From: Sphagnum compactum | Taxonomy: Eukaryota | Assembly: GCA_965153455.1 (NCBI GenBank) | Contig: OZ234493.1 | Span: 26,774,213-26,838,212 of the forward strand | Direction: 5' to 3' | Length of the DNA stretch: 64,000 bases | Part shown: positions 7,301-62,237 of the stretch, in pieces | How the letters are laid out: every line of letters starts with the position of its first letter | How positions within the stretch are numbered: the stretch's first letter is position 1 | Notes under the pieces: generated by a model | The model's input: the letters and a program-made list of their open reading frames with translations, nothing else | What the model was told of the DNA's origin: nothing | Database searches by the model: none | Position numbers and translations under genes: made by a program

Positions 7301-8872
7301 AATACATATATATATATATACGAATTACTTTCTGAAAAGAATAATTATTCATTTTGACCATGTGGCAACTGACCCTAGGCTATGGTAGTCTTAAGTTTCC
7401 AAAGAGGACATCAAAAGTGCAAATAAACCTCAAACAGCAGACCCTTCAAGCTTTTACAATACCTTCCAAGTTCCTCCAGGCTACGGAGGGCAGCAACAGC
7501 AGCATGTGCAAACTGAATAGCCAGTTTGTACAGTTGTGGCCAAGCGATTATGAAGCTGTCCCTAAAGGTGTTGGTTGTTGAGGGCAGTTATGGAGCCATC
7601 TGTCTACTTTGGAGATTAGGGCAAAAGTTTTATGGATTGTACTGTCGGTATAATCTGTTATTACAAACTGTTTTTTCTTGTCCAGCCCACATGTCCATAA
7701 CATTTGTTCCATATTTGGAAAATCCCTTTATAATCCTTTTCCAAAAAAAGGCTTTTAACATTTGTAGTATTGTCTAATCCCCATGCTAGCTTTCATCAAT
7801 TAATTTACAACGTGTTGAATCAACACTGCTGATAAGATGTTTAGCTGAGACGAAGGTATGTATACTTGGCTGATGCCCTCAAGTGGTGATCTCTATTTTC
7901 TCCTCTGAAAGAAGACATGCTTTACAGACTTCATTTGCTACTGCAGCACAGGAAAATTCTTTAGAGATTGATGGAACCCAACGACCACATATACCTGCTG
8001 TTTCTGAGCTGTAAGGCTTCACAGGTGGACCATTATTTCCAAACCCTAAATTCCAAGATGATGAACCATGATGGATCACAGTAATCAGGACAAACCTTAA
8101 GTGACAAAATAGCAGTCACCCATATGCAAAAAGCAATGCACCAGTAAACTTAAATATAATCCCAAAACTAAGACAAACTGCAAACTTCAAATAACTTAGT
8201 AAGCAAGTTAACTCTTGAAGAAACCTTGCAAAGTGATCTTCAGGAAAACAGCTGCAGAGTGACAATGAATTCTCAAACTTGGAAGTCCACGAGCAGACTT
8301 GAAAAGGATGTCCTCTGGTTAATCATCAACCTTCAGCAAATCAAACTGTGTACAGGGAAAAGAAACAACTGTCTTCAAATGATGAATGAGCTACAAAAGA
8401 TCAATCTTAAAAGAAGTGCTTGACATGTTGGACAGATACAGCAAACAATCTGTCTTATAAACCTATAATAATGCTGAAGACAGGAGGAACATTTAAAAGG
8501 CAAGCATGTTATTAGCATCATTTGATGACGATAACTGATACCCACCACTTTTAGGGCAAGCAAACATAAATCTATGAGAAATTGCAGAGGGAAAAAACTC
8601 CACAACACCTTTTGTAAGTAACACAGACAATGAATGAGGGTCATATAAACCTTATGAGTGTGTCAAGCTCGCCTTGTGTTGCTTTTTTAAGGCAAGCAAA
8701 ACAAGTTCAATCCAAACCCTAAAACCTACAGAAAAGGGACCTTGAAACAAAAAATCATCATCGATGGAGGAGAGAGAAAGTAAGTATGCTAACGAGGAAT
8801 TCAGGGATCCTTTTTTGAAGTTGGAAAGATAGAAAGACAATATGGGATGATTTTTCTGTTGAAGCTTGTCAG

Positions 8873-10387
8873 TCAGTTGACATGAGCCTTGTTCAATTCC
8901 ACTCCAAATTTGTCCATAGCTGAGGAAGTGGGAAGTCCCAGGATCACAGTGGCACTTTTCCTGTCTTTCCCAGACGAGATGAAGAGAACCACTCCCTGAT
9001 CAGGTAAGCTGGCTGGGCTCATGGCTACAGCTGGTCCCCACCCAAAATCAGCTTCGTGGAATGGGAGTCTTAACCAGCTGGTAATAACAAAAGAAGCCAC
9101 AAGAGCTGGCCTTGCACGAGTTGCTTCAAAGTGGTCAATTGCAGATCTCACATACTTGTCAGTGACAAAGGCAATGGCATCCTGTACCAGTTTCACTGCG
9201 AATGACAAGGGCTTCTCACAGAGCTCCCCAACTGTGGTGGTGGCAAAAGTGAGCACAATACCATTGCCCATGAAGTGCTCAGGAAGAGGAGGAGACAACT
9301 TCTTGCGTACATCCACACTGAAGAAAACCCTTGTTTTCTGTGCAGGGGTTAGGTTTAGAGAGTTCATGCGCACTCGCCATGTGAATGCAGTGAGAGCCTC
9401 AAAAGTAGTAACCTTGCTCACCCCCTCGCCCTCATCCAAGATGCTCTTCTTCAAAGCATCCATGTCTCTGGGGTTCACCTCGAAGGAACCATGTACTGGG
9501 TTGATGCTGAAGAAAGAGTCATTCGTCGTGGACAGATCCTCCAGATCGTAAAACTCCTCATGAGAGAATTCTGGCTGGAGTGGCGATCGAGGCTTCAACA
9601 TAGATCGATCAATGCTGAACGAGTGCGTCATCTCCAGCCCCCGTGCAAGTTTCCCCCATGAGCAAATGAATTCATGTGCGGCTAGCCCGTCCAGTGTACA
9701 GTGGTTATTGTTCAAACCCAATGCAAACCCACCGCACTTGAACTTGGTCACCTGCATGGAACCCAACAAGAACTCATGACATCCTCGTCAAGAAACGAAC
9801 GTTGCTGCATCTGTCCTGCAGCAGACAAACAGAAAGACACAAATTTGGGACATTCTTCACCCTCCTCTCTTCACTCTCCTCACGAAGTCGTCAGCTGCTG
9901 CATGGAGGGGTGGGTACCGTACCTGAACAAACGTAGGCGGACTCCCCAGAATGTTTTCAGAAGGAGGAGGTTCATACACTAGCTGCTTCATGAACGGAGC
10001 CGGTCTAGAAACATCTCCAAATTCCGCGATGCAATGCTTCTCCGCAACGGCCTCAACGAACACAAGTCCTTGATCTTCAAACTCTATCTGTAGTCTATAA
10101 TCTGGGCTCAACCCAATCCGACCTGCCAAGAAGAACATATGTACCAGCAGCTTCCGCAATGCCTCCTTTAGCACGGCGGCAGGGTCTTGGTCCTTCTTAT
10201 CTTCTTGCCCATTGAAGAACCATACCGTCTTCATGGGTACTGCTATGTTCTGATCCAGATTTGATAAGTAGTATACCTGATGCTCCACTGGCTCAGCCGG
10301 ATGCACTAGCTCCGGCTCTTGTACCCTGATCTCCAGCTTCTCGATGGGTAAGTTGTTACCATTGGATGTCATATCTCCCCCTGCCAT
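8873..10387 (-). CDS. HHT1: BAHD acyltransferase, omega-hydroxypalmitate O-feruloyl transferase (HHT1/ASFT)-like, ~447 aa; exons 10387-9923 and 9751-8873, phase-0 GT-AG intron 9922-9752
   Basis: YYLSNLDQNIAV N-terminal motif, the typical BAHD intron at Q|VTKFKCGG, catalytic HxxxDG (NHCTLDG), RSAIDHFEATRARP and DFGWG; donor CAG|GTACGG, acceptor CATGCAG|GTG; no internal stops. The start could be 10387 or 10372, and orthology is untested. Confidence 0.92.
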
Positions 10388-15030: not shown

Positions 15031-16752
15031 TGTGAGCCATGAATTATAAACCACAAATTGTTAAGCCTAAGTTCCATAGTTTTCCTTAGTATTAATGATT
15101 TGAATACTAATAAACCTCCAAGTAATAATTATTAAGAGATGGATTAGCCTTTGGATATTTCAGCATAGAAAACTCTTTTATTTAAATTGATGCAAGGCTT
15201 AGTTAGTTTTAGGACCTAGTAAACCTTTTTAAGTGCATTATCCTTTTATGTTGTAGAGAAGGGAAAGGGGATGTAGAATTAGATGTGATTTATTGATATA
15301 TTGGGAATACAAGCCCATAACTAACAATAACATTTCGCCATGACAATATTAAGTTAGTCTGTAGAATAATCTTCAGGCACGAATGATGTACTGGAAAGAT
15401 TTTTAGGATGCAATCCTAATACATCTTTATTTAGTTTTCACTTCTATCATACGCTTAGATAGAATCAAAATCAAACTTAAATATTAACATTTCCACCTGA
15501 GTGGCCTCAAGTGAATTACAACTTAGTTAACAACTTTAAGGGAATAGATCATAATTGCAAAAACTCCAGAATGCGACAAATGGTGCGAGTTAGGTATTCG
15601 GCTCGATGCTCCATGGAAAGGGGGTTAATTGGGCCTCGCAGCCAACGATAATGGCCATCACCGGGAACCCAAGTTCGACAATGAATATGAACATCGTCGT
15701 CTTCACATTGACATTTTTCAAACCTTTCTCGCACGGTTCCTCGAGCAGGAATGAATTCTAAATAAATTGTTAAGGCATGTGGGTTAGGAAACAATTGACG
15801 ATCCCATGCCAAATGATCGACTCGAATGCGCACCACTCTTCTGGATGGTTATTCTTCGCGCGACCGTTGAAAAATATTCACCTCAAGCGCTACTTCGTCA
15901 AGTGATGTTCTGTCAAGCGGTGCTTCTTAAAGCTTTTCCTTGTCTACTGGTGCAACTGGAGGATTCGAAGGCGTAGCGACATCATCCGCCATGACTAAAT
16001 TGTCACCTGCATCAACAAAAACAGAGGGTAGTAGAAATAATGTGGTACTTGCGTTCAAAAGGGGTCGAGGCTTTTTTAATTAACAAATTAGGGTAGGCAT
16101 AAGGTGGGGGAGTGAGGACGGAACCTCATGAAAATTTGAACATCCTCGATCTAATAGATTCATCAAACCCTAATTTTGACGGTGGATCTAGGAGTATGTG
16201 GGGGTTCTTGTGATGCAAATTTTAATTCCAATTTACTATGTACTACATAGTTAATTAGTGCATGGAAGAAAAAATAAGTAAAGGATATCAAAAGAGTAAA
16301 TGGTACGCGGGGATGTTACTTCAACCATTGAATTGATTTAGTCAAGTAAGGACTCAAGGATGTTTACTTGTTATTACCGATAAATTGTCCTAGTTATTAG
16401 TTACTTGAAATAATTAGGATGAAAAAATAGGGTGTGAGGGTCAACGGACGGAAAGGATAAGGATCAAGCTCAAGAACTTTATCAAGATATCCAAGATAAG
16501 GGGAAGGATGAGTCCTCCAATCCCATTAGTCATGAGGATTGTCATCCTATTTGATTGGAGGATGGAATATTTTTTGGGTCTCATTGGGCCCAAGAATTCT
16601 CAACCTAAAATCAATTGAAGGGCAAATCATTCTCAATTCTCATTGGCTCTTAAAGGATGAAGAGGCCATTGATTGGAGGGAAGGATTTCGAAGCTTCCAT
16701 TGGTCAAGGGGAACAAGCTCAAGGAAGGTCATGGAGGTTTACCAAGGGAGAG
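15031..16752 (+). mobile_element. Truncated copy 1 of the 2.6-kb LTR-like unit (family B)
   Basis: Starts TGTGAGCCATG and is colinear with 28049-~29728; homology stops at ~16752, followed by Gly/Pro-rich gag-like debris. Confidence 0.85.
15549..15992 (-). pseudogene. Family-B internal ORF (~147 codons, two in-frame stops), unknown protein
   Basis: MADDVATPSNPPVAPVDKE...WDRQLFPNPHAL...CQCEDDDVHIHCRTWVPGDGHYRWLRGPINP...LEFLQL; homologous frames in copies 2 and 3; splice-acceptor-like TTTTGTTGATGCAG just upstream. Confidence 0.55.
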
Positions 16753-28048: not shown

Positions 28049-30687
28049 TGTGAGCCATGGATTATAATACCACAAACTGTTAAGCATTAGTTCCATAGTT
28101 TTCCTTAGTATTAATGATTTGAATCATGATAAACCTCCAAGTAATAATTATTAGGAGTGGATTAGCCTTTGGATATTTCAGCATAGAAGACTCTTTTATT
28201 GATGCAAGGCTTAGTTAGTTTAGGATCTAGTAAATTTTTTAAGTGCATTATCCTTTATGTTGTAGAGAAGGGAAAGGGGATGTAAAATTAGATGTGATTT
28301 ATTGATATATTGGGAATATAAGCCCATAACTAACAAATAACATTTCGCCATGACAATATTAAGTTAGTCTGTAGAATAATCTTCAGGCATAAATGATGTA
28401 CTTAAAAAATTTCTAGGATGTAATCCTAATACATCTTTGTTTAGTTTTGACTTCTATCAGACGCTTAGATAGAATCAAAATCAAACTTAAGTATTAACAT
28501 TTCCACCTGAGTGGCCTCAGGTGAATTACAACTTAGTAAATAACTTGAAGGGAATAGGTCACAATTGCAAAAACTCTAGAATGCGACGAATGGTGCGAGC
28601 TAGGTATTCGGCTCGATACTCCATGGAAAGGGGGTTAATTGGGCCTCGTAGCCAATGGTAATGGCCATCACCGGGAACCCACGTTCGACAATGGAGACGG
28701 ACATCATCATCTTCGCATTGACACTTTCCAAACCTTTCTGGCGCGGCTCCACGAACAGGAACGAATTTTAAATAGATTGCTAAAGCATGTGGGTTAGGAG
28801 ACAATTGACGATCCCATGCCGAACGATCGACTCAAGTGCACACCACTCGTCTGGACGGTTCTTCTTCGCGCAGCCGTTGAGAAACATTCACGTCGAGCGA
28901 TGCTTCTTCAAGCTCTTCCTGTTCTACTGGTGCAACTAGAGGATTCAAAGGCGTAGCGACATCGTCCGCCATGACTTGTTCTCACCTGCATCAACAAAAA
29001 ACCAAGAAGGTAGCAGAAATAATGTGGTACTTGTATTCAGAAGGGGTCGAAGCTTTTTATTTAACAAATTAGGGTAGGCGAAGGTGTGGGAGTGACGGTA
29101 GAACCTTATGAAGATTCAAACATCCTAGATCTAATGGATTCATCAAACCCTAATTTCGACGGTGGATCTAGAAGTATGTGGGGGTTTTTTGTGATGCAAA
29201 TTTTAATTCCAATTTACTATGTACTACATAGTTAATTAGTGCATGGTAAAATAAATAGGTAGGGGATATCAAAAGAGTAAATGGTACACGGGGATGTTAG
29301 TTCAACCATTGAATTAGTCAAGTAAGAATTCAAGGACGTTTACTTGTTATTATTGATAAATTATCCTAGTAGTTAGGTACTTGAAGTAATTAGGATGAAG
29401 AAGTAAGATGTGAAGGTCAACGGACGGAAAGGATAAGGATCAAGCTCAAGAACCTCATCAAGATATCTAAGATAAGGGGAAGGATGAATCCTCCAATCCC
29501 ATTAATCATGAGGATTGCCATCCTTTCTGATTGGAGGATGGAATATTTTTGTGTCTCATTGGGCCCAAGAATTCTCATCCTAAATTCAATTAGATGGCAA
29601 TTCATTCTCAATTCTCATTGGCTCTTGAAGGATGAGGAGGCCATTGATTGGAGCAAGGGATCTCGAAGCTTTCATTGGACAAAAGGAATAAGCTCAAGGA
29701 AGGTCATGGAGGCTTACCAAAGGAGAGGATCTTGTGTGTATGGGAGGAAGAAAAAAAAAAAAAGGATGAAGTGTGAAGAAGGATTTAGTTCTTATGTGTG
29801 GAGAGGTGTTCATGAAAAAGGTGTGTGCAAGAATCAAACATGGAAGGAAGTTGTGTGTAGCAAGTACTTGTAGCAAAGCCTCTGGATTTTTGGTTCAATT
29901 AGTTATTCTTCCCAAATCCACCGTTGGATTTGTGTCAAATTTAAATCAGTTTTAGTTTGGAAGGTGTAAAAGATTCGCCCAAAATTTCAGCATCATTGGG
30001 CTTGCTGTAAGGGAGCTACATTGGTTGGAAGTAGAGGGTGTTGTAGTGGAGTTCATGGAAGGATTTCCATGACAAAGCCGCTGGATTTTTGTTTCAATTA
30101 GTTGTTCCTCCCAAATCCACCGTTGGATTTGTGTCAAATTTAAATCAGTCTTAGTTTGAGAGGTGTAAAAGGTTCTCTTCAAATTTCAGCATCATCGGGG
30201 TTGCTGTAAGGGAGCTACACTTGTTGGAAGTAGAGGGGGTTGAATTGACTTTTTTCCCCTCAATCTAAGCAAAGTGGTTCCTAGTTCCGAGGCTCAACTC
30301 TTGATCAAAAAAATAAAATAAAAACTTATGAGATTTTGTAACATGGCTCCTTTTACATTAAGCTTTTCAAAAATTCAATGCATGTTAGATTAGGAGGTTG
30401 TATGTAGATGTTATGACAAATGGAACGGAAGGGTTCCAACCATCAAGCGTGACATTGAATTAAACATTAACATACGGCTCCTTCATATTCTATCATGGTG
30501 AGTTACGATTCTCTCACGATGTCTTTGTATCTTCAAATTGGACGCAACGCATAAGATCCTTAGTGAATTTCATTACTTACCTTGAACCACCTTATTTGTT
30601 AGACTACAACTACATAGTAGTTCCACTTCCAACCGAGTTTTTGTGAGTGCATATCTTAAAGGTGAAGGTGTGCAAAAATCCCTCACA
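28049..30687 (+). mobile_element. Family-B solo-LTR-like unit, copy 3 (2639 bp), inserted in the host integrase zinc finger
   Basis: TGTGAG...CTCACA inverted termini, perfect 5-bp TSD ATGCA (28044-28048 and 30688-30692). Confidence 0.93.
28559..28972 (-). pseudogene. Family-B internal ORF (~137 codons, one CGA>TGA-type stop), unknown protein
   Basis: MADDVATPLNPLVAPVEQEELEE...PNPHALAIYLKF...CQCEDDDVRLHCRTWVPGDGHYHWLRGPINP...LEFLQL; differs from copy 1 by an in-frame 30-nt indel. Confidence 0.6.
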
Positions 30688-46765: not shown

Positions 46766-49657
46766 AAAGCACACTATGTTGGACTTTTTTGGATGTCACA
46801 ATGGTAGTTTTTTCTAGGTGAGTCAAGTATTATTGCATTGTATTTGAATATATTTGAGAAACTTGGCAAAAGTAAGATGAAAAATTAAAACCTCCATTCT
46901 TTCAAACCCCAAAAGGATAAACGTTCAATCCAAGGTGAACTTTACAAAGGATGGTACATCCAACGTCATAGTCCAAACAACCCAAAAAAACTATCATTAA
47001 GGATTTTTTTCTTCTAGTGGAGTTGGAAACTAAGCCTACAACTTTCTACCACCACACATTGAAGTACCATAACACGTAAGATGAAAAAATCAAGGAAAAA
47101 AGTCTATAAAAAATGTAAGATTTAAATGAAAATTTCAAATTTGTAAAGTCCATTTTAATATCTAAATTGATTTTTTCAAGGCTCATATTTTTAGAGGTTT
47201 TTTTTAAAGGTTTAAACTATGGTGGTATGAACTTGGAAATGGAAAAAAATGTGAACTTCAACACCATTTAAATGTTTTTTTTGAGAAATCATTAGATTTG
47301 GACTCCAAAAATGGACTTTGAGCTATTAATTTTAATCTAGTGTAGTGTGCTTTTACTATTATTTGGAACTACCACAATTGGTGATAGCCATGTGGCCCCC
47401 TCCATAGGTTGTATGAAACATGTTGCTAATAGTTTATCAATGTCTTGTTTCATTGTTGCACTGTGTCCAAAACTCTTAATCCACTCTTAAACTTCATCAT
47501 GTTGCACATGACCTTACCATCACCGAGGTACACGTAATTGGGTTTTCAGGGTTGACAACTGTCAAGAGAACTGAAAAAACAAAACTTGGATGCAAGTCAA
47601 AAGTGTTGCGCCCTTTTAGAATTGGCTCTAATAAACATTCCAACAGTCTTTCAGGTTGGTCCCCATCCCATTTGCTCCCCACTTAAATGTTTAATTTCAA
47701 AGTTCACATCCATGTGGGATTGTGTGCATCAAATTTCATTGAGCTGCCACAAGGTAATGTTATAGTGGTCACACTCATTGTTGTAATCTATGTTTTGGTT
47801 TGGCTAGAATTATCTTAACATTTCTTGGGTTGTATTACAGGTTCTTGTTTCTCTCCGCAATCACATTGATATACAATTTTGAGCCACAACCATGATACTG
47901 TCATGTGCAAAACCTCTGGTTTCGCAAATGTGTTGTACTTGTTAGAATGGTGCTGCATAATTTTGGGCAGGTTGTGCTAGCAACATTGTGCTATTATTGC
48001 TTAGAGTAACTCCACTAATGCTTAGTATGTGAACTTGCAAATTAAAATTGGACAAAGATAAATCAAAACATGTCGGTTTGGCCGAGCTTTCTGGCACAGT
48101 TTGCTCAGGCTAGTGCGAGGCACAGCAAAGCCTAACACCTGTTGTTGACCTGCTGTTGATTGGTTAGATAGTTTGATTGGTCCACGTGGGTTGGTATTAG
48201 TAGTCTCTCGCATATTTGCAGTCCTAGTTTTAGATTTATAGGTGGGGTTGGAAAAAAGTAAATAACTAAACTTGGATGTGAAAAATATTTTTGTAGGGTT
48301 ACATACTAAGCACCGATGGAAATGCTCTTAATCACTTTGCAAATATACTAGAGTGGGTTGAGAAAATTTGCATGAGAGCTTTCTTTTATAAATGGTAAAT
48401 GTTAGGTAATCCCCTTTTCTGTAACCTCAAAATTGCAATGGAATAGACCTACCAGCTAAACATGTTATGGTTGTTGGTGTGTTCAGAACACTAAGGTCTG
48501 CATATGGATTCCATAGAATCATGTGTTGGATTGGTTCAAATTTCCTTCTTTGCAGCAATGAATGAGCAACAATTTTGGTTAGCAATAGATTCAATTTAGC
48601 ACTAGGCTCCACTAGAAGCATTTCCATTTGAGGTGTAAACAACAGGTGCCAAGTGGTCGATGGATGTGAAAGATGTGATTGGCCATGCATACCATGATGA
48701 TGTTGATAAACCACCCAAACAAAAAACCCCCTAATTGAAAAGGAGGGTTTAGTTGTCATTTTTTGCATGAGCAATTTAAAAAATTATGGCACAAAATATG
48801 TTCTTAAAACTAATCCTTTTGCCTTTCCAAACATGCAACACTTTTCACGAATTTTCCAACCATTCATTCATTCTAATTGTAACCTTAAGAAAGATTGACA
48901 AAATATTGATCCTAATGATGTCACCCACATGTAGACTTCCTCTCCTATTTTGTCCACAACTTATGGTGAGATCTTTTGGAGCTTCAATCGTAATCTAGCA
49001 TCCATGGTGGTCAATTGATGTAGAAGAGGCCACATTACAAGGTGCTTAAGACCATACAAAGCACCAAATTCATTCAATTTTCTTCCACCATAAAATCAAT
49101 TGAATGGTCACAGTTGGTATGGGAAAATGGTCTTGTGTCTACAAAGAGTCATGTGTTCTATGCATTTGAAAATATCACTACTACCAAAGTGGGGTGTAAT
49201 TCACTAGCTTAAATCAATATGGGACCTTAAAAATGAAATAACTTCATTGCATTTTACTGATTTCACCTAGTGAAAATTATTTCATTATAATATCACTATG
49301 TAGACATCATGTTTCATTTCTAGTTAACAAAATTTACTATTACAATTTACTTTAGCAAATAGGTTTATTTTTATGTTTTTAAAAATATTCTATCTATGTT
49401 ACTTTATGATATACCCTATATTATTTTAAGCTATTTTAGTTATTCTAACCTATATTTTACATTATTATAGGCTATTATAAATTATTGTACCCTAAATTAT
49501 GATATGTTATTTTACCATAAAGTATTTTAACTAGTTTATTATAAGCTTTTAAATTATTTAAAATTAAATTATTCAACTAATTTTAGGCTATACTTTAGGT
49601 TATTTTATTTTAAATTATGTTATTTCAACTTATACTTTAAATTATTCAAGGTCATTC

Positions 49658-50401
49658 TGTAACCAAAAAGGAGGAGACCCAGAAAACAATCGGATCCCTC
49701 TCTCTGCCCTAGCAGGAGCACATCCGATCGAAACCACAAATCGACTGAGATGCACACAAACACAACACAGACTCCAGACACTAAGTCTCTGCCTGCTCAA
49801 CTTCTGATCGAATTGCACCACAACATGAATGCAGGATTCATTCGACTGAACTGTCCACTCACACAAAGCAACAGAGGCATGAAAGAAACAACGCAATTCC
49901 TCATTCACAGTTTGATATTTACAGCTTCCTCGACAGTGCAAGCGCCCACATCCCTCTTACTACCAAAATCTACCAGCTCTGTGGTGCTAGCCGAGCATCA
50001 CTATGACAGAAGCCAGGGTCTGGCCGATTGCAAATCGCAGCGGAAGAGAAAAACAACAATCAGCCTAACCTCCTCACAGAAATTCCGTCCCATCACCTAA
50101 CTGTTTTCCCAACACTCACTATCCTCTCTACTTAGCTGCCTCGCTTGGCCTCATCCCCAAGCTATCTTACTCGCGCCCATCCTCCCTCATGAATGCAGCG
50201 CCGCACTGAAATTCATGAAGCGCCGTCCTCTAGACAGCTCTTGCCATGCAGCCCATGCATACCCTAGCCATCCGAATTCCGAAATCGATCATGATCCGCC
50301 GCCACTCATGAATGAGGCGGCGAGTCTGATCCTCGTCTCAGTTCGCATCCTCTCACCGGCAAGAAGCAAAAAGAAAACCAGTGACCCGTTGTTCGGTCAC
50401 A
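49658..50401 (-). repeat. 3' LTR of the young element (TGTGACC...TGGTTACA on the element strand)
   Basis: Direct repeat of 56745-57488. Confidence 0.95.
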
Positions 50402-50408
50402 TATGTAA

Positions 50409-50421
50409 CCCCTCCCTTTTT
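50409..50421 (-). promoter_or_regulatory. Polypurine tract AAAAAGGGAGGGG
   Basis: Purine run 7 nt upstream of the 3' LTR on the element strand. Confidence 0.85.
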
Positions 50422-50442
50422 GAAAAAGCTGAGTCCCTCAGC

Positions 50443-53400
50443 TCAGTCCGGTTGAACATAATAAATTTGCAGATCGCGTCAGGACCTTTCCCATTGCCGC
50501 CCATCAGCGTCCCGGACGATGCAGATTCGACTGCCTTCTTCGAAGTCGAAATCGCCCTTGCCATCAGCATGCCCAACAAAGTGATAAGGACCTTCCCAGC
50601 TGGCACTGAGTGCTCTCCTCTTGCCTGGTTTCTTCATCTTGACCATCGAAACCCCAGCCACCAGTCCCTCAAACAAGTGTTTACCTGCTTTATGTGCATA
50701 CGTACTCTTCTGTCTTTTCTGTGCCTGTTCAACGTTGAGTAATACATCCTCATGTATGCTCGCAATAAGTTTCACCTTCTCCAGGAACTGCACCGCTGTG
50801 TCTTCCATACTAGAAGAGTCATCAATTACTTCGGTCAGATTGTTCAGGTAGTTGTCTGCCCTAAGTCGCGGCGACCTACCCGTCAGGATCATGTACGGTG
50901 AAAACTTCATGCTCGCCTACACTCCACACCGATACCCAAACAATACCTTCGCCAAGTGCTCATCCCAGCAATTCGTGTTGGCAGGGTTCGCAGCCAGTAC
51001 AGTGATGCCGTGCTTGAGTGTTTTGATCATCCGTTCAGCCATTCTGTTGCAATGCGGCCACTGTGGTGCAGTGCGCTGGTGGTGTATGGCATAATCTCTG
51101 CACATGGTTTCGAATTCTGCACCCCATCCCCCCCATTATCGGTCAGCACAAACCTGGGAACCCCGTACCTGTAGATCAGATCGTCCTCCAAAAATCTGGC
51201 AGTAGTCTGGGCCCCGTGATCAGCAACAGCTTTGGCCTCGCACCACTTCGAGTACTGGTCGATGGCCACCAGGATATACTTATTGCCTGCCCTTGTCTCA
51301 GGCAATGGACCAGCTGTGTCCAGAGCAATTCGATGGAATAAGTCACAAATCGGGATACTCTTCAGACGCTCATCCCCAGAGCGTATGCTTCCCTCACTTC
51401 TTACCAGCTGGCATTGCTGGCACGTTCTGACCATCGTCTTCACACATTCCATTTTATTGTTCCAGAAGTACCTCTGGCAGATTTCTGCCAAGGTCCTCTG
51501 CTCCCCAAAGTGTCCCAAGTCCTCATGCATCTGTGTCACCAGCCTCAGCCTATCTTCAGGTTTGGGTACATACAATTCTTTGAAGTAGAGTTTCCCATCC
51601 TTCCAGCAGTATTGCTTTGCCCTTTTTTTTACTCTCTTACTTTCCTGAACATTAACTTCTTCAGAAATAAACCCGTTCTTCAGCCATTCCATACAGACCG
51701 CATCTTCCCAGATGTCAGTTTGACTTGAATTATCGACACACGCTCCTTCATCCTCTGACCTCGCATTACTGGCCTCGGGTGCATTATCATTCCACAACCC
51801 TTGGGCAGCTAGCACTAGCTCAAGCTGCTGCTTCCTGTCATAGTACATGGTTCCACCTTTCCACATGGTCTGCTTGTCTCTGGAGAATTCCGAGTCTCGG
51901 ATTTCATTTCTAGCAGCTTCGGATCCCTCCTCAGGTGAATCAGCTTCCTCATCCGTCTGCACTTCCAACATGCACAAGTGATGTGGCTCTGACCATCTCC
52001 AGTGGTTGATGCCAAAACAACATCTGACGTGCTGCTTCGTCCCTCCTGATTGTCTCCGCAGACCAAGCCATTCCGACTGCCTGCCAATCTGGGTAGAGAA
52101 CACAATTTCAGTCATGGCAACAGAGTTGCCTTGCCCACTATTAATATCTCGGATCTCTTCACAAAAATCGTCATCATCCTTGGCCTCCCCGACTGGGTTC
52201 CGGCTCAGCGCATCCACATTAGTGTGTTTCATCCCTGGTCGATGCAGAATTTTGAAGCTGAAATCCTGCAGCAGGTCAATCCAGCGTCCCCTCCTTCCAT
52301 TCGCATCAGAGACCGTCGCAAGCCATTCAAGTGGCTTGTGATCGGTCCTCAGAGTGAAATGTGTCCGGTGGAGGTATTGCCTGAAATGCATGATGCCCCA
52401 AATTAGTGCATAACACTCCCCTTCCATGGGATGGAATTTCTTTTGCACAATCGTCAGACCTTTGCTGGCGTATGCGATAACTCTCTCCATCCTGCCTTCT
52501 CTTTGGGATAGAATGGCACCGACATCCTTCGGTGACCAATCTACATCGAGGCAAAATGGCCTCTTGAAGTCTGGTCGAGTGAGCACAGGAGCAGCCACAA
52601 GCGCTCCCTTCAGGGCTTCAAAGGCATTTTGACAACCCAGATCCCACACAAAATCAGCCTCTTTCCTTGTCAATTCAAACAAGGGAACAACCATCCGAGA
52701 GTATCCACGGATATAATTTCTGTAGTATCCAGTCAATCCCAGGAAAGACCTCATGTTCGTGACCGTCTTTGGTACTGGAAAATGAATCACAGCAGCAATT
52801 TTACTTGGGTCTGGTCTAGTCCCTTCACAGCTGACCACATGTCCTAGAAAAGTAATGCTCCTGGCAGCAAAACAGCATTTGCCTGGATTGAGTTTCAGGT
52901 TTACTTCCCTTAGTTTGGAAAGCACAGCATCCAGGTGTCGGAGATGGTCCTCCCAACATTCGCTGTGGACATTAAGGTCGTCCACAAACACCTTCAGAAA
53001 CTTATCCCCCAGATCTTTGAAAACCAGTGACATCGTCCTGGTGAATGTGCTTGTTGCATTCTTAAGACCAAAAGGCATAACAGTCCAGTCATATAGACCG
53101 GTTTTGGTGATCAGCGCCGTCTTCTTCACGTCGTCTGGGGCCATGCGAATCTGCCAAAATCCCGATTACAAGTCTAACGCACTGAACCAATTCGACCTTC
53201 CTAATTGGGATATCACATCCTCAACTAAAGGCATCGGGAATGAATCTCTCCGGGTCTGTAGATTGAGTGGTTTGTAGCCCCCACAGAATCTCATGCTTCC
53301 GTCCTTCTTCACAGGCAGGGTCACTCGACATGCGTATTCTGAGTTACTGGGCCTCATTTTGCCCAGATCCACCAATACGTCAATCTGGCGCTTCACTTCG

Positions 53401-55754
53401 GCTTCTTCCCAATAAGACAGTCGTCCGGGGGTCGCTCTACATGGCACAAATCCCTGCGTGTCGATGGAGTGTTCCTCGACCGTACAGTACCCGAGCTCAC
53501 CCTTGTTCCAAGCAAACACATCCTGATATCCCTCTAACACCTTCCACAACAATGGCCTCTTTAGTTCGTCCAGGCCTGGATCTATCCTGATCTTCTGACA
53601 TATGTCATTCCACTTGGAATTCACACCAGACTCGTCTGCGGTAGTGATTTGGTCTTCTAGCTTCCTGCAAGAAGCAGTATCATTCAATCGGCGAACTTGC
53701 AATAATGCAGGAGCCTCCACATTGGCCGAACCAGAGGGTGCTTGCTTCTTTCGTTCTGCATCAGCTACCCATTTGATCCAGTCGGCATAATCATCCGAAT
53801 CTCCCGCTTCCTCCTTCATGAGGCGGTCTGTTTGTTCCTGCAAAGTCAGCTGTAGTATCTGCTGAGGTCCCTCCCTCATGACCAGCTGTTCAAGTTCCGT
53901 GTCCTCGAATTCTGACTCATCACAGATCGGTTCCTGCAGTTGATGTTCCTCTTCAGAGTTCTCAGACGTATCAGAGTCCGATTCTGACATTCGTATCGCT
54001 GGCCGTTGGTCCCTTACTTCGGTATTGATACGCGGGCGCTCCACGACCAGGTCAGATCTCTCGGTAGCTTGTAGATCCATTGGCTTCAAGCCTTCTGGAC
54101 TCACTGCATGCAACATGTTCACCATGGTCAGAGGTAGTACCTCAACATCCACCCCCGGACCATGCCTCACCTGAATCAATCCACGTTCTACATCAATGAT
54201 TGCTCCTATCTTGATTAGAAAATCAAGTCCTAGCAGCACATCGTAGCTATCAGTATCCACCACCATAAACGTCATAAGACATTGTACGCCTCCAGTCTTG
54301 ATCGATACTTCATCGATCCTTCCCATAGCTCGTGTAACAATGCCAGATGCAGTCTTGTAGGTTTCTGATCCAGGGACCAGATGCATCATACCCATTTCTC
54401 TGACCACTGCAGCGGCCATGACAGACATGGACGCACCAGTGTCCACGAGTCCCTCGATCAGGTAGCCATTTATCTCAACAGATAAATGCAATGTTTTGCT
54501 CCTGTGAGTCTTATTGACACAAATCCTCCTCAGGGTCGGAGGAGCAGACACCATTGACACCTGAGTACTCTCAACTTCCGAATCCTTCCTCCTTCTAGCA
54601 ACTTTCACTAAATTCTCCAGTTGCTCCAATTCGCCTGGTATCATCATCACCGTCTCCATTGGTGTCAGGGAGACCTTCCCCTTTATGAAATGGGAAAGAA
54701 TCTTTGATCTGACGGCATTCTCCCGATTCACCCCACTGTTGTCTTTTGCCACCTCATTCTATGGTGCAACACCAGTTGTTGGCAGTTCAACCAGATGTCT
54801 TCGCCTGGGTATGCAAGTGTGTGAGAATACATTCTCATTTCCACACAATTCATTGAGCTGCTGCAACGTTGCTGCCTCATCATTCAATAATACCTCAAGG
54901 AAATTGGCCGCTCCAGAATGTGATTTTCTGTCTTTAGATTTCTTCCAGCACCTGTCCTCAGAGTGCCCAAGACCTGAACAAAAAGAACATTTTATACCAC
55001 AATTTTTGGTCCTATGCAGCATACCACATTTGGCACATTTTGGCCGTGGCTCATTCAGCCTTGGACACGACGTGGCTATATGGTCCTTCCCCTTGCAGAC
55101 TTGACATTCTTTAAACTGGGCAGAAAAAGAAGATGGTGTAGAGTTCGGCACACCTCCCTTAAAAAAGTTGATCAGTGTATCATTCAAAGTGGCAACCTGA
55201 TGTTCCATAGACATTTCAGCTATTCTTTCTTCCTGTTCCTCTTTGAGAGGCTCGAATGGAGTCTCTTCAAGCTCACCTAGCACTCGCTCCACCTCATTGG
55301 CTGCACCCAACAATTCCTCTATATCAGCAAAAATTCTTACAACGCACAATTTTCGGATCTCAGGCCTCAACTTGGCCAGAAACCTCCTTCTTTGCTCGGC
55401 ATCTGATATTCTGCCTTTCCGGAAAAATTTGTCCAACCGTTCGAAATACCTCTGAACCCATTCTCTGGGTTCCTGCTTGATGGCATCAAGCTTTGCCCGG
55501 ATGTCATCATCGTCAATATTGCCATACTTCTGCAAAATCAAGGTCCGCAACTCAGTCCAATCAGCCGGAGTTGGTTGGAGCCTCCTGAGCCATTCACGGG
55601 CCCGTCCTCTCAAGTTGAGCTTTGCGATTTTAAAAAGCTTGTCCGCATTGAGGTCTCGCACCTCAGCGGCCATGGTGAGCCTTTCAGCCCAATCACTGAC
55701 GGCTTCGTGTTCTCGTCCCCAGAACAATTCGTCCATGCCCTGTGGATTAGTCAT
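50443..55754 (-). pseudogene. gag-pol polyprotein with in-frame stops at 54759, 53166, 50917 and 50479 and a frameshift at ~51127
   Basis: Retrotrans_gag-like region, three Cys/His knuckles, protease LVDTGAS, RT LDL*SGFWQI..VMPFGLKNA..VFVDDL, RNase H LDVDWS..TDHKPL, integrase H-X4-H..CQQC, LDTAGP, TDNG; no chromodomain seen. Confidence 0.93.
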
Positions 55755-56016
55755 TCTGCAGATGTATAATGAAGACAAAGAAAATTGCAAAACCGCCTTC
55801 AGACTACAAAGTCCTGAGATCACAATGTACACACTTCAAAAGTTGCTTGACTCTGACTTTCAACAACAGACGTCAAACTGGACACCAAAAATCTGAATGA
55901 GCTTCCTTACACTCAGCACTTCAAAAACAAAAGAAAACAGATGCAAAAATCAAACCAAAATTTTATCTCTGGTAATTTAGTTCTAGCTTTTGAAACAAAA
56001 ACGACATCCGTCTGAG

Positions 56017-56674
56017 TCACCCATCAAATTCAGCCTGCACTCCTTCATGGATGGGCTTCAGTGGTGGAAAGACAGCTGGAACAGTGGAAAATTTCTGTTC
56101 ATCAGTCGACTCTTGCTGAAACTTCCACTCTCCTTCCTTGGTACGCCAAACTCTCCAGCCAATGAGACGTGATCTGGAGCCGTTGTGCTCCACTCGATTC
56201 ACTCGATCTCCCTCCTGAAACAGGTCCTCTATCCCGGGTATGAATAGTCGCACAAAATGATTCGGTGATATTGCAGACTTTGGCACCCAAATGTCCCCAA
56301 GTCTTGGAATCGCCTCTTGTCTCTCTGAAAACGCAAGAGCGATCCTATGCAAGGTAGGAAGTGTAGTAGCAGTGCTCCTGCAGCTCTGATGTGTGAGCCC
56401 AGGCTCCTGCTCCATTAGTGACCTTCAACCAAACTATGGCTCTTGTGTAGAACCTACTGTGAACTATTTCAACAGCGATGTCCCCTACTCTAGTTGCGTC
56501 GAGATCTATCCCCACTAACCTCATAACACCAAATCCTAAAAATTGTAGAATTGCCGCTCCTCTTTGAGGGCCGTTCTGCACAGTATAGAAATCAAATCTA
56601 CTAACGAGATTCAGCTCACGATACCCCTGTGTCAATGCTTCTATGGGAACTTCCTCACCGCTAGTAGAAGACAT
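56017..56674 (-). pseudogene. Extra ORF (~219 aa after fixing one +1 frameshift at ~56425) between the PBS and gag, unknown function
   Basis: Overlapping ORFs 56345-56674 and 56017-56415 join as ..AIVWLRSLMEQEPGL.. if one A is removed from TTGAAGG; globular-like composition. Confidence 0.6.
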
Positions 56675-56740
56675 GACTTCTAAAGTTCATCCTCTTCAGA
56701 CATCTATCTGTATCACCGATCTCTCAGACAACGCAACCAT

Positions 56741-56752
56741 GCTCTGATACCA
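56741..56752 (-). promoter_or_regulatory. Primer binding site TGGTATCAGAGC (initiator tRNA-Met), overlapping the 5' LTR end
   Basis: gctctgatacca on the + strand. Confidence 0.92.
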
Positions 56753-57488
56753 AAAAGGAGGAGACCCAGAAGACAATCGGATCCCTCTCTCTGCCCTAGC
56801 AGGAGCACATCCGATCGAAACCACAGATCGACTGAGATGCACACAAACACAACACAGACTCCAGACACTGAGTCTCTGCCTGCTCAACTTCTGATCGAAT
56901 CGCACCACAACATGAATGCAGGATTCATTCGACTGAACTGTCCACTCACACAAAGCAACAGAGGCATGAAAGAAACAACGCAATTCCTCATTCACAGTTT
57001 GATATTTACAGCTTCCTCGACAGTGCAAGCGCCCACATCCCTCTTACTACCAAAATCTACCAGCTCTGTGGTGCTAGCCGAGCATCACCATGACAGAAGC
57101 GAGGGTCTGGCCGATTGCAAATCGCAGCGGAAGAGAAAAACAACAATCAGCCTAACCTCCTCACAGAACTTCCGTCCCATCACCTAACTGTCTTCCCAAC
57201 ACTCATTATCCTCTCTACTTAGCTGCGTCGCTTGGTTTCATCCCCAAGCTATCTTACTCGCGCCCATCCTCCCTCATGAATGCAGCGCCGCACTGGAATT
57301 CATGAAGCGCCGTCCTCTAGACAGCTCTTGCCATGCAGCCCATGCATACCCTAGCCATCCGAATTCCGAAATCGATCATGATCCGCCGCCACTCATGAAT
57401 GAAGCGGCGAGTCTGATCCTCGTCTCAGTTCGCATCCTCTCACCGGCAAGAAGCAAAAAGAAAACCAGTGACCGGTTGTTCGGTCATA
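56745..57488 (-). repeat. 5' LTR of the young element (T[A]TGACC...TGGTATCA)
   Basis: Direct repeat of 49658-50401, same length. Confidence 0.95.
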
Positions 57489-57689
57489 ATTCTACTTAAT
57501 GTTATTATAAATTAGTTTATCCTAAGCATAATAATTTTAAAATAATAAAACAAAATATAATGACCTAAGGTATAAATAACTTAGAATAGAAAATAATAAC
57601 CTATGAAAAATAATTTTGAATACCCTATAATATAATAACTACCAATAGCCTACAATATTATAACATATAATAACCAACAATAACTTATA

Positions 57690-58370
57690 ATACAATAACC
57701 ATTAATAAAATAGCCATCAATAACCACCAATAAAATAACAACCAATGGCTTACAACAGAATAATCACTAATAGCCATTAATAAAATAGTCACCAATAGCC
57801 ATTAATAGACTAATCACGAATAACCATAAATAGAATAATCACCAATAGCCATTAATAGATTAATCACGAATAGCCATAAATAGAATAACCATAAATAGCC
57901 ATTAATAGTCATTAATACATTAATCACGAATAGCCATTAATAGAATAGCCACTAATAGAATAGCCACCAATAGCCATTAATAGAATAGCCACTAGTAGCC
58001 ATTAATAAAATAGCCACCAGTAGCCATTAATAAAATAGCCACCAGTAGCCATTAATATAATAGCCACTAGTAGCCATTAATAGAATAGCCACCAGTAGCC
58101 ATTAATAGAATAGCCACCAGTAGCCATTAATATAATAGCCACCAGTAGCCATTAATATAATAGCCACCAATAACCATTCATATAATAGCCACGAATAGTC
58201 ACTAATAAAATAACCACGAATAACCACTAATAGAATAACTACTAATGGCCATTGATAGAATAACCACCAATAACTATTAATAGAATAACCACTAAAAAAC
58301 ATTAATGGCCACAAATAAAATAGGTACCAATAGCCATTAATAACCACCAATAACACTAATAAAAGAACAA
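57690..58370. repeat. Minisatellite of ~25-bp units (aatagccaccagtagccattaatag), grading into an AATAGCC/AAATAA-rich array to ~58800
   Basis: Near-perfect units at 57960-58170 with degenerate flanks. Confidence 0.9.
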
Positions 58371-59484
58371 CCATATATTATTATTGCTTAGGATTGCCAA
58401 AAATAATCTAAAATGAAATAATTTATAATAATAATAAATAACTTAAAGTGAAATAATTTTCAATAGCCAAAAATAACTTATAATAGCTACAAGCAATCTG
58501 AATTCAAATAATTTAAAATAGCCAAAAATAACAAAAAATAAACAAAAAAACTTACAATAATTGAAAATAGCCTAAGGTGAAATAAGTTAAAATAGTCAAA
58601 AGTCATTTATGATAACTGCAAGTAGTCTAAATTGAAATAATTTACAATAGCCAAAAATAACATAAAATAGCCAAAATAACCAAAAGTAGCCTAGGGTGAA
58701 ATAACCAAAAATAACCAAAAATATTTGAGAATAGTTGTAAATAGCCATAAATAATGTAGGGTGAAATAATTTAAATTAATGAAAAATATTCATATAATAA
58801 TTGAAAGTAATTTAACATAGGTAGTATCATTATATTAACAAAAAAAATCCATTTACTAAATTATTTTTTTCAAAAGAATGGTCATTGAAATGTTATTGAA
58901 TAATGATATTCAACCTTTTTTTTGTTCAAATGATTTTAAACTTTCAAAAGGAAATAAATTTAATTATGTACATTATTGAATTTTAAAAAAAAGTAAACTC
59001 GAATCATTTCATTTGAACAAAATCTCAATAAGATATGAATTTTCAAAAATTATGTTTTTTGTAATGTTTAAAATGAAATATTTGATAAATAGAATGTAAT
59101 GTAACATGTTACCACAACAAGTGGGGTGGTTTGATGGTAAAGGTGTTTGCCCCCATTCCAAAGGTCAAGGGATCAAACCTCATGGGTGGTGTTGTGTGTG
59201 GTCAACAATGGTATGTTGACCAAATATTCTTTGATAGTGTTAGGTGCCTAGGTTGACAAGTTGGAAATTTGTAAAAACATTCTATTGGGAACTTAATCAT
59301 GAACATGAGGTTTTGTTTTATAATGAAGTTACAAGGATGTTATTTCCAAGATGAATGATGATAGTAGGGAATTCATATGCAAATGCCTTGGCTGTTCCAT
59401 GAATTCAACATTGCATGCAATTCAAGTGATGAGCAGAATAGTTGTAATCGATATTGGTTATTAGTCCAACAAAAAACAGGCATG

Positions 59485-59567: not shown

Positions 59568-61089
59568 GTAGGTGAAACTCATGTCGGGCCTCTACCAATG
59601 ACCTTTTGGGGGTGCCAACACCTTGTCAGGTTGGGTTTGCTATTATGCTTTTAAAATTTAGTATTGCATAATATTATAAAAAATTGGCCTGGCACCAATA
59701 ATTAAATACATCATTGTTCATATTTCTAATAATTAGGCAGTGCAATTAAAGAACATTCCAATTTTACCATCATGTCAAAGTATGATTTTAGGAAGGGTGA
59801 AGAACCATGAAATCCTTTCCCAAATTAGAGGTGTCCAGCATAATTGTGAACAACATGTTTAGCCTACCCAAAGTTATGAGTTGGAACCAAGTGTGGAAGG
59901 TCACTTATCCCAATAATGTTAACTAGTAGTTAAATTGGGATGATTGTTCTCTAGATTTGTCCAGAGTCTATGGCTTGAAGCCGCTTGAAGCTAGTCATCA
60001 CATACTGTAACACCTTGGCAGCTTCGGCATTGATTAAATTATGTATAAAATGTTAAAATTTCCAAAGAACAAAATTTGGTGAAGGCAAATATATATATAT
60101 ATACATTTGATTGTATATGTTTTTGGAATTTGTGCAAAAAAGTATGTAGAAGACTTGAAAGGGCGAGTTAGTAACACAATAGCATTATAGGCATTACAAA
60201 GTTGTAGAATACACCCACAAATTATGCAGGAGATAGTGGAATGCAAAGAGTTTGGGTTTGCCATACTTTGTGAACTACCTTGTAGTCATATTTGTGATTT
60301 ATCAAAGAAAGAAAGTGACATATTTTAGCAATAAGAATGCAATCACATTGATGAAAACAGAAAAAGGGGAAAGGTGGATTGGGCACAAATTAGATGCAAT
60401 AGTTTGTGTAATGAGCTGGATTGGTGGTATAAGTATGTCAAGGAGAATAAAAGGGACAATGACACCTGTCAGTCAGCCAACCCTAATACTTCCAAAGAGT
60501 TTTAAGTATTTATTTGTTCACCAAAAGGAGAACTCACAGAAACCACATGCCAAGGTCAAGAAAACTAGAGAGGAGATGTAGGCAACATTGGAAAATAAAT
60601 AGTAGAATTTCCAAGAAGTGTTTTCAAAAGGAAGAACAAAGCTAAGGAAGGTTGAATTTCAAGATTAGGAGTTAAGAAAGAATAGGAGAACATTGAAGCA
60701 AGGGCTCAGAAGATGATGAGGGGTAGAGTGGCACCATTCGTAGTGCCAACACTAGTATGGGTAAGTATGCACATCACAAATATATAGGCTTCATGGGTTC
60801 GTTCCAAAATTCGTGCAAAATTTGTTATTTCATGGGTGCATATCATTTAAACATGAATGTCATGCATTATTTAAACACGAAAGTCGTGTGCACAACTTTT
60901 GTGTGTAAACAACACGAATAGACATATAACATCTATGTTTAAACAATATGAACAAATATATGACATTTGTGTCGAAACAATGCACACAACATTGATGTTC
61001 AAATAATACAAATAGATGAATGACATCCGTGTCTATTATATACGAACCTATGAAAAACAAATTTTGCATGATTATTATTGCCAAATCAT

Positions 61090-61494
61090 GACTCATGAAG
61101 TTTGACGCGCTCCCAAGTCCCTAGTTAGTCCCAAGTTTGGGCTAACTTGTTCAAGTTGCGGAAAAGGGAGGACTCATGAAGTTTGACGCGCTCCCAAGTC
61201 CCTAGTTAGTCCCAAGTTTGGGCTAACTTGTTCAAGTTGCGGAAAAGGGAGGACTCATGAAGTTTGACGCGCTCCCAAGTCCCTAGTTAGTCCCAAGTTT
61301 GGGCTAACTTGTTCAAGTTGCGGAAAAGGGAGGACTCATGAAGTTTGACGCGCTCCCAAGTCCCTAGTTAGTCCCAAGTTTGGGCTAACTTGTTCAAGTT
61401 GCGGAAAAGGGAGGACTCATGAAGTTTGACGCGCTCCCAAGTCCCTAGTTAGTCCCAAGTTTGGGCTAACTTGTTCAAGTTGCGGAAAAGGGAG
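61090..61494. repeat. Five identical 81-bp tandem units spanning an LTR/flank junction
   Basis: Units start at 61090, 61171, 61252, 61333 and 61414. Confidence 0.95.
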
Positions 61495-62237
61495 GGACTA
61501 GGAGCACGCTCCCAGCCTTCAGCACTAAGAGGGGTAGAGGGTCGTGCTGAAGCCTCGGGATGGACTAAGAAGAGTGACAAGCTTTTCACCTATTCAAATC
61601 TGCATCAAAACCAACCACAAGTTGGTTAGACCACTTTCTGGATCACTTTGGTGCTAGGACAAACCACGGGCAACCTTGGACTCACTTGACTCACCACTGC
61701 CCGGACTTGGGGGAAGCCACCATCTTCCCCCATATAGTATTCTCTGCAGCTCTCGCTACATCCGAATGGCACTTTTTCCCGGGACTCCCAAGGAGGAGTC
61801 CCGAAACTGTCCCGATTTGGACTCCCAGGACTTTGGGAGCTTATATCTCCCGGCTCAGACCTCTGATTGGAGTGAGGTCTAAACCAAAGTTTTAGCTCTC
61901 CTCGAGATCTTTCCAACGGTCTGTTGCATTCCACTTGCACACACCGGGATCAAGTCGATTCCCGACTTTTAGTGGTCGGGAGTCAAACTGCCAGTTTGAC
62001 TTTCGGCCCTTCTTTTGCCCATAACTCGGGCTGCAGATGTCCAAATGGCCCATGCGAGGCCATTTTCAACATCTACACTTCAAGACCTTTTCATTGATAT
62101 AAAGAACACCTCAATGCGAGGTGTTTTGACCCCTGCAATCAAGCTCTGAATTTTTGAGAGTCCCGGTGGACTCCAAGTCCCCAACTTTGGGAATGTGAGT
62201 TGCATCCTCACACTTTGCCCAAAGTGGGGTTGCGACA
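61103..62237 (-). mobile_element. Solo LTR, family A (unit-length copy 61427-62237) with an amplified terminus
   Basis: TGACGC...TGCGACA termini, TSD AAGTT on both sides (61098-61102 and 62238-62242). Confidence 0.92.

Follow-up and report, generated by a model that had tools for sequence, protein, structure and literature searches.

In the textbook account of retrotransposons with long terminal repeats (LTRs), both LTR ends are fixed by two sites, the tRNA primer binding site (PBS) and the polypurine tract (PPT). A canonical LTR has CA as its last bases, the PBS follows 0-2 nt later, and both LTRs end alike (see, e.g., the table in PMC3852365). Here we describe an LTR retrotransposon in a 64-kb stretch of the genome of the moss Sphagnum compactum (the whole stretch of 64,000 nt is called the window below), whose family has spread with a right terminus that lacks a template at the place where this account requires one. 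The element lies on the minus strand at positions 49658-57488 of the window, where it is present in one copy, and is a degenerate, dead member of a moss Ty3/gypsy family without a recognisable chromodomain, with a tRNA-Met PBS and target site duplications (TSDs) of 4 bp. All sequences of the element are given on its own strand.

Among the described systems that come closest, hepadnaviruses and caulimoviruses complete their ends by a template switch between minus-strand ends via a short terminal redundancy, DIRS1 holds the junction of both its termini in an internal complementary region, and foamy viruses duplicate 4 bp of their target. The integrase of the prototype foamy virus, a spumaretrovirus, cuts the palindromic LTR-LTR junction to 3'-processed ends, only 2 nt being lost on integration (PMC1180852), and that of HIV-1 can cut an internal palindromic 2-LTR junction (PMC1905944, PMC4372172). 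An overlap between PBS and LTR is reported for the insect gypsy lineage (PMC3286476), where it measures one base, and in Sireviruses the junction between PPT and 3' LTR has a short stretch of intervening bases together with a precisely placed inverted repeat (PMC2829016).

Two end forms in one retrotransposon family

The two LTRs of the window copy end differently. The 3' LTR (744 nt, 49658-50401) starts with TGTGACC and ends with GGTTACA, and it aligns without gaps to an LTR-equivalent span of the same length at the other end of the element (56745-57488), which starts with TATGACC through a G-to-A change at base 2. Both read ..GGGTCTCCTCCTTTTTGG near their ends; the 3' LTR then continues with the pentanucleotide TTACA (49658-49662) and with GAAT, which also precedes the 5' LTR, and the 5' LTR continues with TATCAGAGCATGGTTG and has no terminal CA. 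With the point of divergence marked, the 3' LTR ends as CCTCCTTTTTGG|TTACA and the junction between 5' LTR and PBS reads CCTCCTTTTTGG|TATCAGAGCATGGTTG, U5 running straight into the PBS TATCAGAGC.. The PBS TGGTATCAGAGC (56741-56752), which we take to be a tRNA-Met site, has its first 8 nt within the LTR-equivalent span, and a canonical U5 would end at 56753, directly before it. The integrated right end is made up of U5, of TGG (the first bases of the PBS, a copy of the tRNA CCA end) and of TTACA, for which there is no template upstream of the PBS. The canonical end structure, with both LTRs ending alike in ..CA and the right terminus encoded in U5, is absent. The PBS is unique in the window, no tRNA genes were found in these 64 kb, and the same 12-mer is printed as the complement of plant tRNA-Met in PMC3852365.

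At the other border of the internal region, the PPT AAAAAGGGAGGGG (50409-50421) is separated from the LTR start by the 7-nt spacer TTACATA (50402-50408). PPT end, spacer and the LTR start TGTGACC together read GGTTACA-TA-TGTGACC, a quasi-palindrome (GGTTACATATGTGACC, 50395-50410). The element thereby carries, as hard-wired internal sequence and not as a circle junction, a palindrome with CA..TG cut sites made up of its right and left ends. Inside the element, GGTTACA occurs apart from the right end solely behind the PPT, where it is followed by TA and the LTR start. It was found nine times on both strands of the window against 8.6 expected, with a chance frequency of about 7 per 100,000 positions of the window, and by our own arithmetic the chance of its falling exactly between PPT and LTR start is roughly 3-4 in 10,000. 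An earlier reading of the same DNA (the first-pass annotation) had drawn attention to the LTR/PBS junction, the 3' LTR end and the palindrome at the PPT, and its statements on all three hold in the window sequence.

The two LTRs differ at 18 of their 744 aligned positions (about 97.6-97.7% identity). Of these, 16 lie scattered and include 12 transitions; the remaining pair, next to each other at positions 741-742 (AT versus TA), comprises the sole A/T transversions. Unlike ends could be private damage to the window copy, by a pair of point mutations at the end of the 3' LTR or by an 8-bp deletion between TGGT repeats that removed TTACA at the 5' junction. The copy is old enough for such events, given its 16 other LTR differences, in-frame stops and frameshift, and the TGGT microhomology would favour the deletion. 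However, both events are contradicted by related loci and by contigs from sequencing runs.

Related loci were collected in one metagenome scan whose query was the last 20 bases that the two LTRs have in common before their ends diverge. Twenty loci were returned, of which three (L002, L012, L016) had nothing else in common with the element and were left out; the remaining 17 are related and moss-derived. At four of these (L006, L007, L010, L014), the LTR end leads into TATCAGAGC.. and then into homologous internal sequence, 82-84% (about 83%) identical to the window copy, with no TTACA: all four have TGGTATCAGAGC directly after ..TTTTTGG, and in L010 the PBS extends to 18 nt (TGGTATCAGAGCCAGGTT). 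The other 13 loci show free LTR ends that carry TTACA and then pass into unrelated flanks, in 12 cases as ..TTTTTGG TTACA and in one (L018) as ..TTTTTGGG TTACA, with one extra G. These 13 ends represent 11 distinct sites, L004/L009 and L005/L011 each being the same site found twice. None of the 17 loci has TTACA followed by the PBS (TTACA-n-TGGTATCAGAGC), and none of the 13 free ends reads TATCA. With the window copy included, TTACA is missing at all 5' junctions (5/5) and present at all free ends (14/14), which is one part of the support that the first-pass annotation had looked for, the other being co-variation of the 3' terminus with the bases after the PPT. The LTRs of these loci can be aligned to the window LTR solely over their last ~40-55 nt and start with TGTAGCC.. 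rather than TGTGACC..; since loci so diverged keep the same two end forms, the architecture has been propagated through many transposition events.

The window element was also aligned to one raw-read run and to the contigs of three other runs (X2, X6, X7, X20). A 501-nt contig with a depth of 511, from the run of another organism, spans the PBS junction (56261-56761) with no gap, and no indel at 56745-56752 is present among the alignments listed for the four runs. Both outcomes by which the first-pass annotation expected to be overturned, a private AT/TA swap and a small deletion in this copy, are thus excluded: the same two forms recur in 17/17 related loci from diverged subfamilies, none of these loci has the TTACA-PBS arrangement, and the contig is gapless. 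Private damage is therefore rejected as hardly conceivable, and the end asymmetry is a family-wide trait. Contigs of two runs diverge from the window copy inside the LTR, at 50384, yet align across the junction region, which suggests that a second LTR subfamily shares the PPT/LTR junction region at an identity of at least 90%.

Words of the element were found at 54-58% in runs of two organisms, at 23-28% in five runs that carry the label moss metagenome, and at 10-18% in four runs of three further organisms (runs X1-X19 compared). Their occurrence across runs of several organisms points to the presence of the family, or of close relatives, in several related hosts. In L007, a full-length copy whose 3' end lies beyond its contig, the 5' flank ..TGTTAC abuts TGTAGCC (oriented coordinates 3640-3656) and is similar to a portion of the TTACATA spacer; this flank may be the TSD or the trace of an unprocessed left end.

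The reads also speak to the target. A joint 49653->57489 that skips the whole element was present in 101 raw reads and recurred in the contigs of each of the three other runs. These empty-site sequences show an uninterrupted target without TGTAA/TTACA, so the five bases are brought in by the element, and TTACA as a preferred target sequence is ruled out. The element is flanked by an AT-rich satellite with a period of 25 bp (49400-49653 and 57493-58395, with 24 register-shifted copies at 57521-58395), so the empty-site reads may stem from an empty allele and also from sister units of the repeat; the insertion may then be fixed and the joint derived from such units. The predicted empty site was seen in reads alone, with no instance elsewhere in the 64-kb window.

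The TSD of the window copy is GAAT (ATTC on the plus strand), at 57489-57492 on the left and 49654-49657 on the right of the element. Five bases are ambiguous at the empty-site joint ('both = 5'), a fifth base matching beside GAAT, so this site alone cannot separate a duplication of 4 bp from one of 5 bp. Four complete solo LTRs of the form TGTAGCC...GGTTACA carry 4-bp TSDs (L001, CCTT; L013, CCTT; L015, ATAT; L020, ATGT), and a fifth base matches at two of the five sites (L001 and the window copy), which is the level of chance. A 5-bp duplication, fitting 2/5 sites, was rejected; the 4-bp TSD of the first-pass annotation is borne out by the solo LTRs, and the family is confirmed to make 4-bp TSDs. 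TSD length is lineage-specific in plant LTR elements, 6.2% having 4 bp versus 93.4% with 5 bp (PMC6317226). The same source gives NCGN as the insertion preference of Phygy, the moss lineage of non-chromoviruses of Neumann et al. (2019); none of our five TSDs (GAAT, CCTT, CCTT, ATAT, ATGT) fits it. CCTT is duplicated at two independent solo LTRs with different flanks (L001, LTR at 2105-2949; L013, LTR at 8574-9521; oriented coordinates), which may be chance or a hint of a target preference.

Possible origin of the right terminus

In reverse transcription, the right end of the cDNA forms where the plus strand meets the 5' end of the minus strand, and it consists of the base beside the tRNA primer plus any tRNA bases spared by RNase H. 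From the U5/PBS junction of this family, the right end would hence read ..CCTCCTTTT, or ..TTTTTGG(T) if CCA (or ACCA) were kept, and never TACA. The 5' LTR/PBS junction of a daughter copy is, moreover, a copy of the parental RNA in retroviral reverse transcription. Canonical master copies would give daughters with TTACA before the PBS, yet 5/5 junctions are non-canonical, and TTACA must therefore be regenerated at each insertion from elsewhere. Judged from these junctions, the right end is not templatable by canonical reverse transcription.

A leftover of the tRNA primer is one conceivable source of the additional bases: RNase H could leave about 8 nt of the primer, which would be copied, and integrase would then use the CA inside the copied PBS. 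The first four extra bases, TGGT, are indeed identical to the start of the PBS, and the one-base overlap of the insect gypsy lineage (PMC3286476) fits RNase H leaving the last base of the tRNA on the minus strand. Nevertheless, such a copy would read TGGTATCA, whereas the 13 free ends read TGGTTACA or, in L018, GGGTTACA; a pure tRNA remnant was rejected, as it would give TATCA. To our knowledge, the tRNA acceptor stem has no modified bases that could cause a constant swap of two bases. A different primer ending in ..UGUAACCA would convert the PBS of the progeny, but 5/5 PBS copies are TGGTATCAGAGC. A tRNA leftover thus explains TGG or TGGT, not TACA, and as the source of the whole terminus we regard it as very improbable. 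In the insect lineage, furthermore, both LTRs end alike, while in the moss family 3-4 nt are common to PBS and LTR before the LTR ends diverge.

The reading that we prefer, and to which we assign a probability of about one half, is that the 7-base spacer behind the PPT is the source from which the right end is copied or ligated, via an end-to-end switch or a circle-type junction that integrase then cuts. The element would probably rebuild its right end by joining its two DNA ends, as follows. Plus-strand DNA would start directly behind the G-run, giving a left cDNA end TTACATATGTGACC.., and the right cDNA end would finish as ..CCTCCTTTTTGG (..TTTTTGG). The two might meet through a hepadnavirus-like switch of reverse transcriptase from the 5' end to the 3' end of the minus strand, via the GG/CC overlap; the growing plus strand would move onto the minus-strand 3' end, with the common GG (or GGT) acting as a short terminal redundancy. 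Alternatively, they might be ligated into a 2-LTR-type circle. Either way, the joined product would read ..TTTTTGG-TTACA-TA-TGTGACC.., and cleavage by integrase 3' of each CA of the palindrome would yield ..GGTTACA-3' on one strand and ..GGTCACA-3' on the other, each with a 2-nt overhang. Insertion with a 4-bp stagger would then leave the integrated ends of the family, ..GGTTACA and TGTGACC... The plus-strand start, the joining step and the cleavage of the junction are all steps that we infer from sequence. The first-pass annotation had proposed that joining the cDNA ends and cutting around the central TA gives exactly the observed ends; this stands for the family, and is one base off for the window copy, whose 5' LTR starts with TATGACC instead of TGTGACC. 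In favour of this reading, GGTTACA lies exactly between PPT and LTR start, and the extra G of L018 would fit a PPT cut one base earlier in the G-run, a weak indication.

Several known systems bear on individual steps. The moss family resembles canonical plant Ty3/gypsy elements in the order gag-protease-reverse transcriptase-RNase H-integrase, in TG..CA termini with short inverted repeats, in the PBS TGGTATCAGAGC and in the presence of a PPT. It differs in a 5' LTR that lacks the terminal CA and abuts the PBS, in a 3' LTR with five untemplated bases, and in the 7 nt that separate PPT and LTR, a copy of the right end plus TA. With the prototype foamy virus it shares a palindrome where right and left ends meet, with 2 nt between CA and TG in the moss element, and foamy-virus junction cleavage is a published precedent for the proposed cutting step. 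In the foamy virus, however, U5 and U3 provide normal templates for the two junction halves, and integration via circles is an optional, debated route; in the moss family, the right half is not encoded in U5 and the junction is hard-wired behind the PPT. For HIV-1, junction cleavage is a side reaction and the linear DNA ends are already complete. Hepadnaviruses, caulimoviruses and DIRS1 have no DDE integrase with LTRs and TSDs, whereas the moss family has an integrase zinc finger and core and 4-bp TSDs. Sireviruses, which share intervening bases and an inverted repeat at the PPT/3' LTR junction, are Ty1/copia elements that have the universal CA at the end of their 5' LTR, ahead of the PBS, and their intervening dinucleotide is not a copy of the right end. 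None of the partial precedents (insect gypsy lineage, Sireviruses, foamy virus) joins a U5 lacking the terminal CA to a right-end copy that is hard-wired behind the PPT. Likewise, no published LTR element with a right terminus missing from U5 was found in the open literature, a search that lies outside Repbase, subscription journals and supplementary tables (including the per-element PBS and TSD data of PMC6317226) and is no proof of absence.

The right end might also arise by some other non-canonical route, with GGTTACA-TA-TGTGACC behind the PPT having a different job, which could be the plus-strand primer cut, RNA dimerisation via ACAUAUGU, or the relic of an old LTR-LTR junction. For example, genomic RNA might reach the end of the 3' LTR and the minus strand be primed downstream, the 3' terminus then being inherited from the 3' LTR. 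The Sirevirus junction shows that intervening bases and an inverted repeat can occur at this place, without such a role having been put forward for them (PMC2829016). A hint of contacts between the 5' and 3' parts of the RNA comes from the U5 end CCTCCTTTTT, which approximates the reverse complement of the PPT: positions 56753-56764 (CTCCTCCTTTTT) are nearly the reverse complement of 50409-50421 (AAAAAGGGAGGG), and the predicted duplex has -23.0 kcal/mol versus -16.2 +/- 3.2 for shuffled sequences. It is a modest signal, the energy of the CUCCUCCUUUUU/PPT duplex being reached by 14 of 500 shuffles. Such 5'-3' RNA contacts are described for Ty1 and Ty3, and in the moss element the modelled pairing could place the PBS beside the border of PPT and U3; it is neither proof of the joining model nor grounds for excluding it. 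In favour of this other non-canonical route, no direct evidence of a junction intermediate was found among the joints listed for the four genomic DNA runs. On the other hand, it leaves the exact 7-mer identity of spacer and right terminus to chance (the 3-4 in 10,000 given above). The PBS is also perfectly conserved at 5/5 junctions, and over 18 nt in L010, which argues that the normal primer is used; the right end is then templated by the minus-strand 5' end, which is without TTACA. A conserved priming site beyond TTACA is impossible because the flanks differ at every insertion. We consider a route of this kind unlikely on balance, and still a serious contender.

A number of points weigh against rebuilding from the spacer as well. 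The PPT/3' LTR junction is known from the window copy alone: no second one occurs among the related loci, none of which has ACATATGT in the context of a PPT, viral contigs yielded nothing in two exact scans for this junction, and a protein-based scan of viral contigs returned no relative. Seven matches in bacterial and archaeal records, from a scan of prokaryote genome contigs, were taken as chance, ~17 being expected by our estimate. The pattern of the metagenome scan was fixed as ..CTCCTTTTTGG, which would have missed any ends joined in another way, and the extra G of L018 could equally be slippage. No LTR-to-LTR joint that goes back was among the joints listed for the four genomic DNA runs, which leaves no direct sign of circles or tandem junctions, although such joints are unexpected in bulk genomic DNA anyway. 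The accepted substrate of retroviral integration is linear DNA, not a circle. A circle would, in addition, hold two identical 16-bp palindromes, one at the end junction and one internal, and cutting of the internal one would give permuted products: insertions ending in ..PPT-GGGGTTACA without a 3' LTR, or with the order LTR-LTR-internal. Finally, reading frames are interrupted in all copies seen, and no active member is known.

The spacer model can be put in a stronger form, in which the family cannot integrate from plain linear cDNA and its right attachment end is rebuilt in each cycle from the 7-nt cassette behind the PPT, via an obligatory joined-ends intermediate that integrase opens. This form is a tentative proposal, compatible with the junctions seen here but one that may well go too far.

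Coding remnants and sequence context of the window copy

The degenerate gag-pol of the element occupies 50479-55835 (minus strand) and is disrupted by one or more frameshifts as well as by two in-frame stops. Stop-to-stop frames and Pfam matches place gag at 54759-55835 (Retrotrans_gag), protease at 53166-54758 (gag-asp_proteas), and reverse transcriptase, RNase H and the integrase zinc finger and core in one frame at 51027-53165 (RVT_1, RT_RNaseH, Integrase_H2C2, rve). The C-terminal part of integrase is assigned to a further frame at 50479-50916. The match to Integrase_H2C2 is clear, and that to rve is marginally below the cut-off (31.9 versus 32.6 bits). The order gag, protease, reverse transcriptase, RNase H, integrase zinc finger and integrase core on one strand is that of Ty3/gypsy, and together with the LTR pair and its TSDs, the PBS beside the 5' LTR and the PPT before the 3' LTR it places the element in this group (Metaviridae). 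It is not DIRS-like, as Integrase_H2C2, rve and 4-bp TSDs are all present. No chromodomain was matched by Pfam in the last frame, which ends at 50479 and so falls about 57 nt short of the PPT. By this feature alone the element would not be a chromovirus, a provisional assignment in so degenerate a copy.

In comparisons of 49600-57560 with contigs of three runs, the alignments listed show A in the window against G in the contigs at 47 places and T against C at 54-67, with fewer changes in the reverse directions (C>T 20-24, G>A 12-20). By this bias the window copy has lost G/C to A/T, as expected from the deamination of methylated cytosines in a silenced copy.

Elsewhere in the window, a tandem array with a period of 81 bp lies at 61009-61576, for which six overlapping 163-nt register copies are listed, four being 100% identical to each other. 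Another, older pair of LTRs (15031-16752 and 28049-29727), about 13 kb apart and 88-90% identical, starts with TGTGAGCC. It was considered as a control within the same genome and rejected, its ends being too decayed for a PBS, a CA terminus or a TSD to be read.

Consequences for annotation and for the biology of LTR elements

Software for finding LTR elements assumes identical LTR termini and a PBS outside the LTR. Annotation pipelines that bar an overlap of PBS and LTR, or that require CA before the PBS, will place the boundaries of families such as this one wrongly.

If the junction reading is true, linear ends would begin with TTACATATGT.. and finish with ..TTTTTGG, accompanied by joined forms ..TTTTTGGTTACATATGTGACC.. 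A right end rebuilt from the spacer would also provide a simple genetic read-out, as new insertions should show at their right end a mark that had been introduced into the spacer, and it would reopen, in a natural system, the old question of whether joined LTR ends (circle junctions) serve as precursors of integration. Were an obligatory junction intermediate to hold true, the moss family would be the first LTR retroelement to require one, rather than producing it as a dead-end by-product, and it would link LTR retrotransposons mechanistically to the pararetroviruses that circularise.

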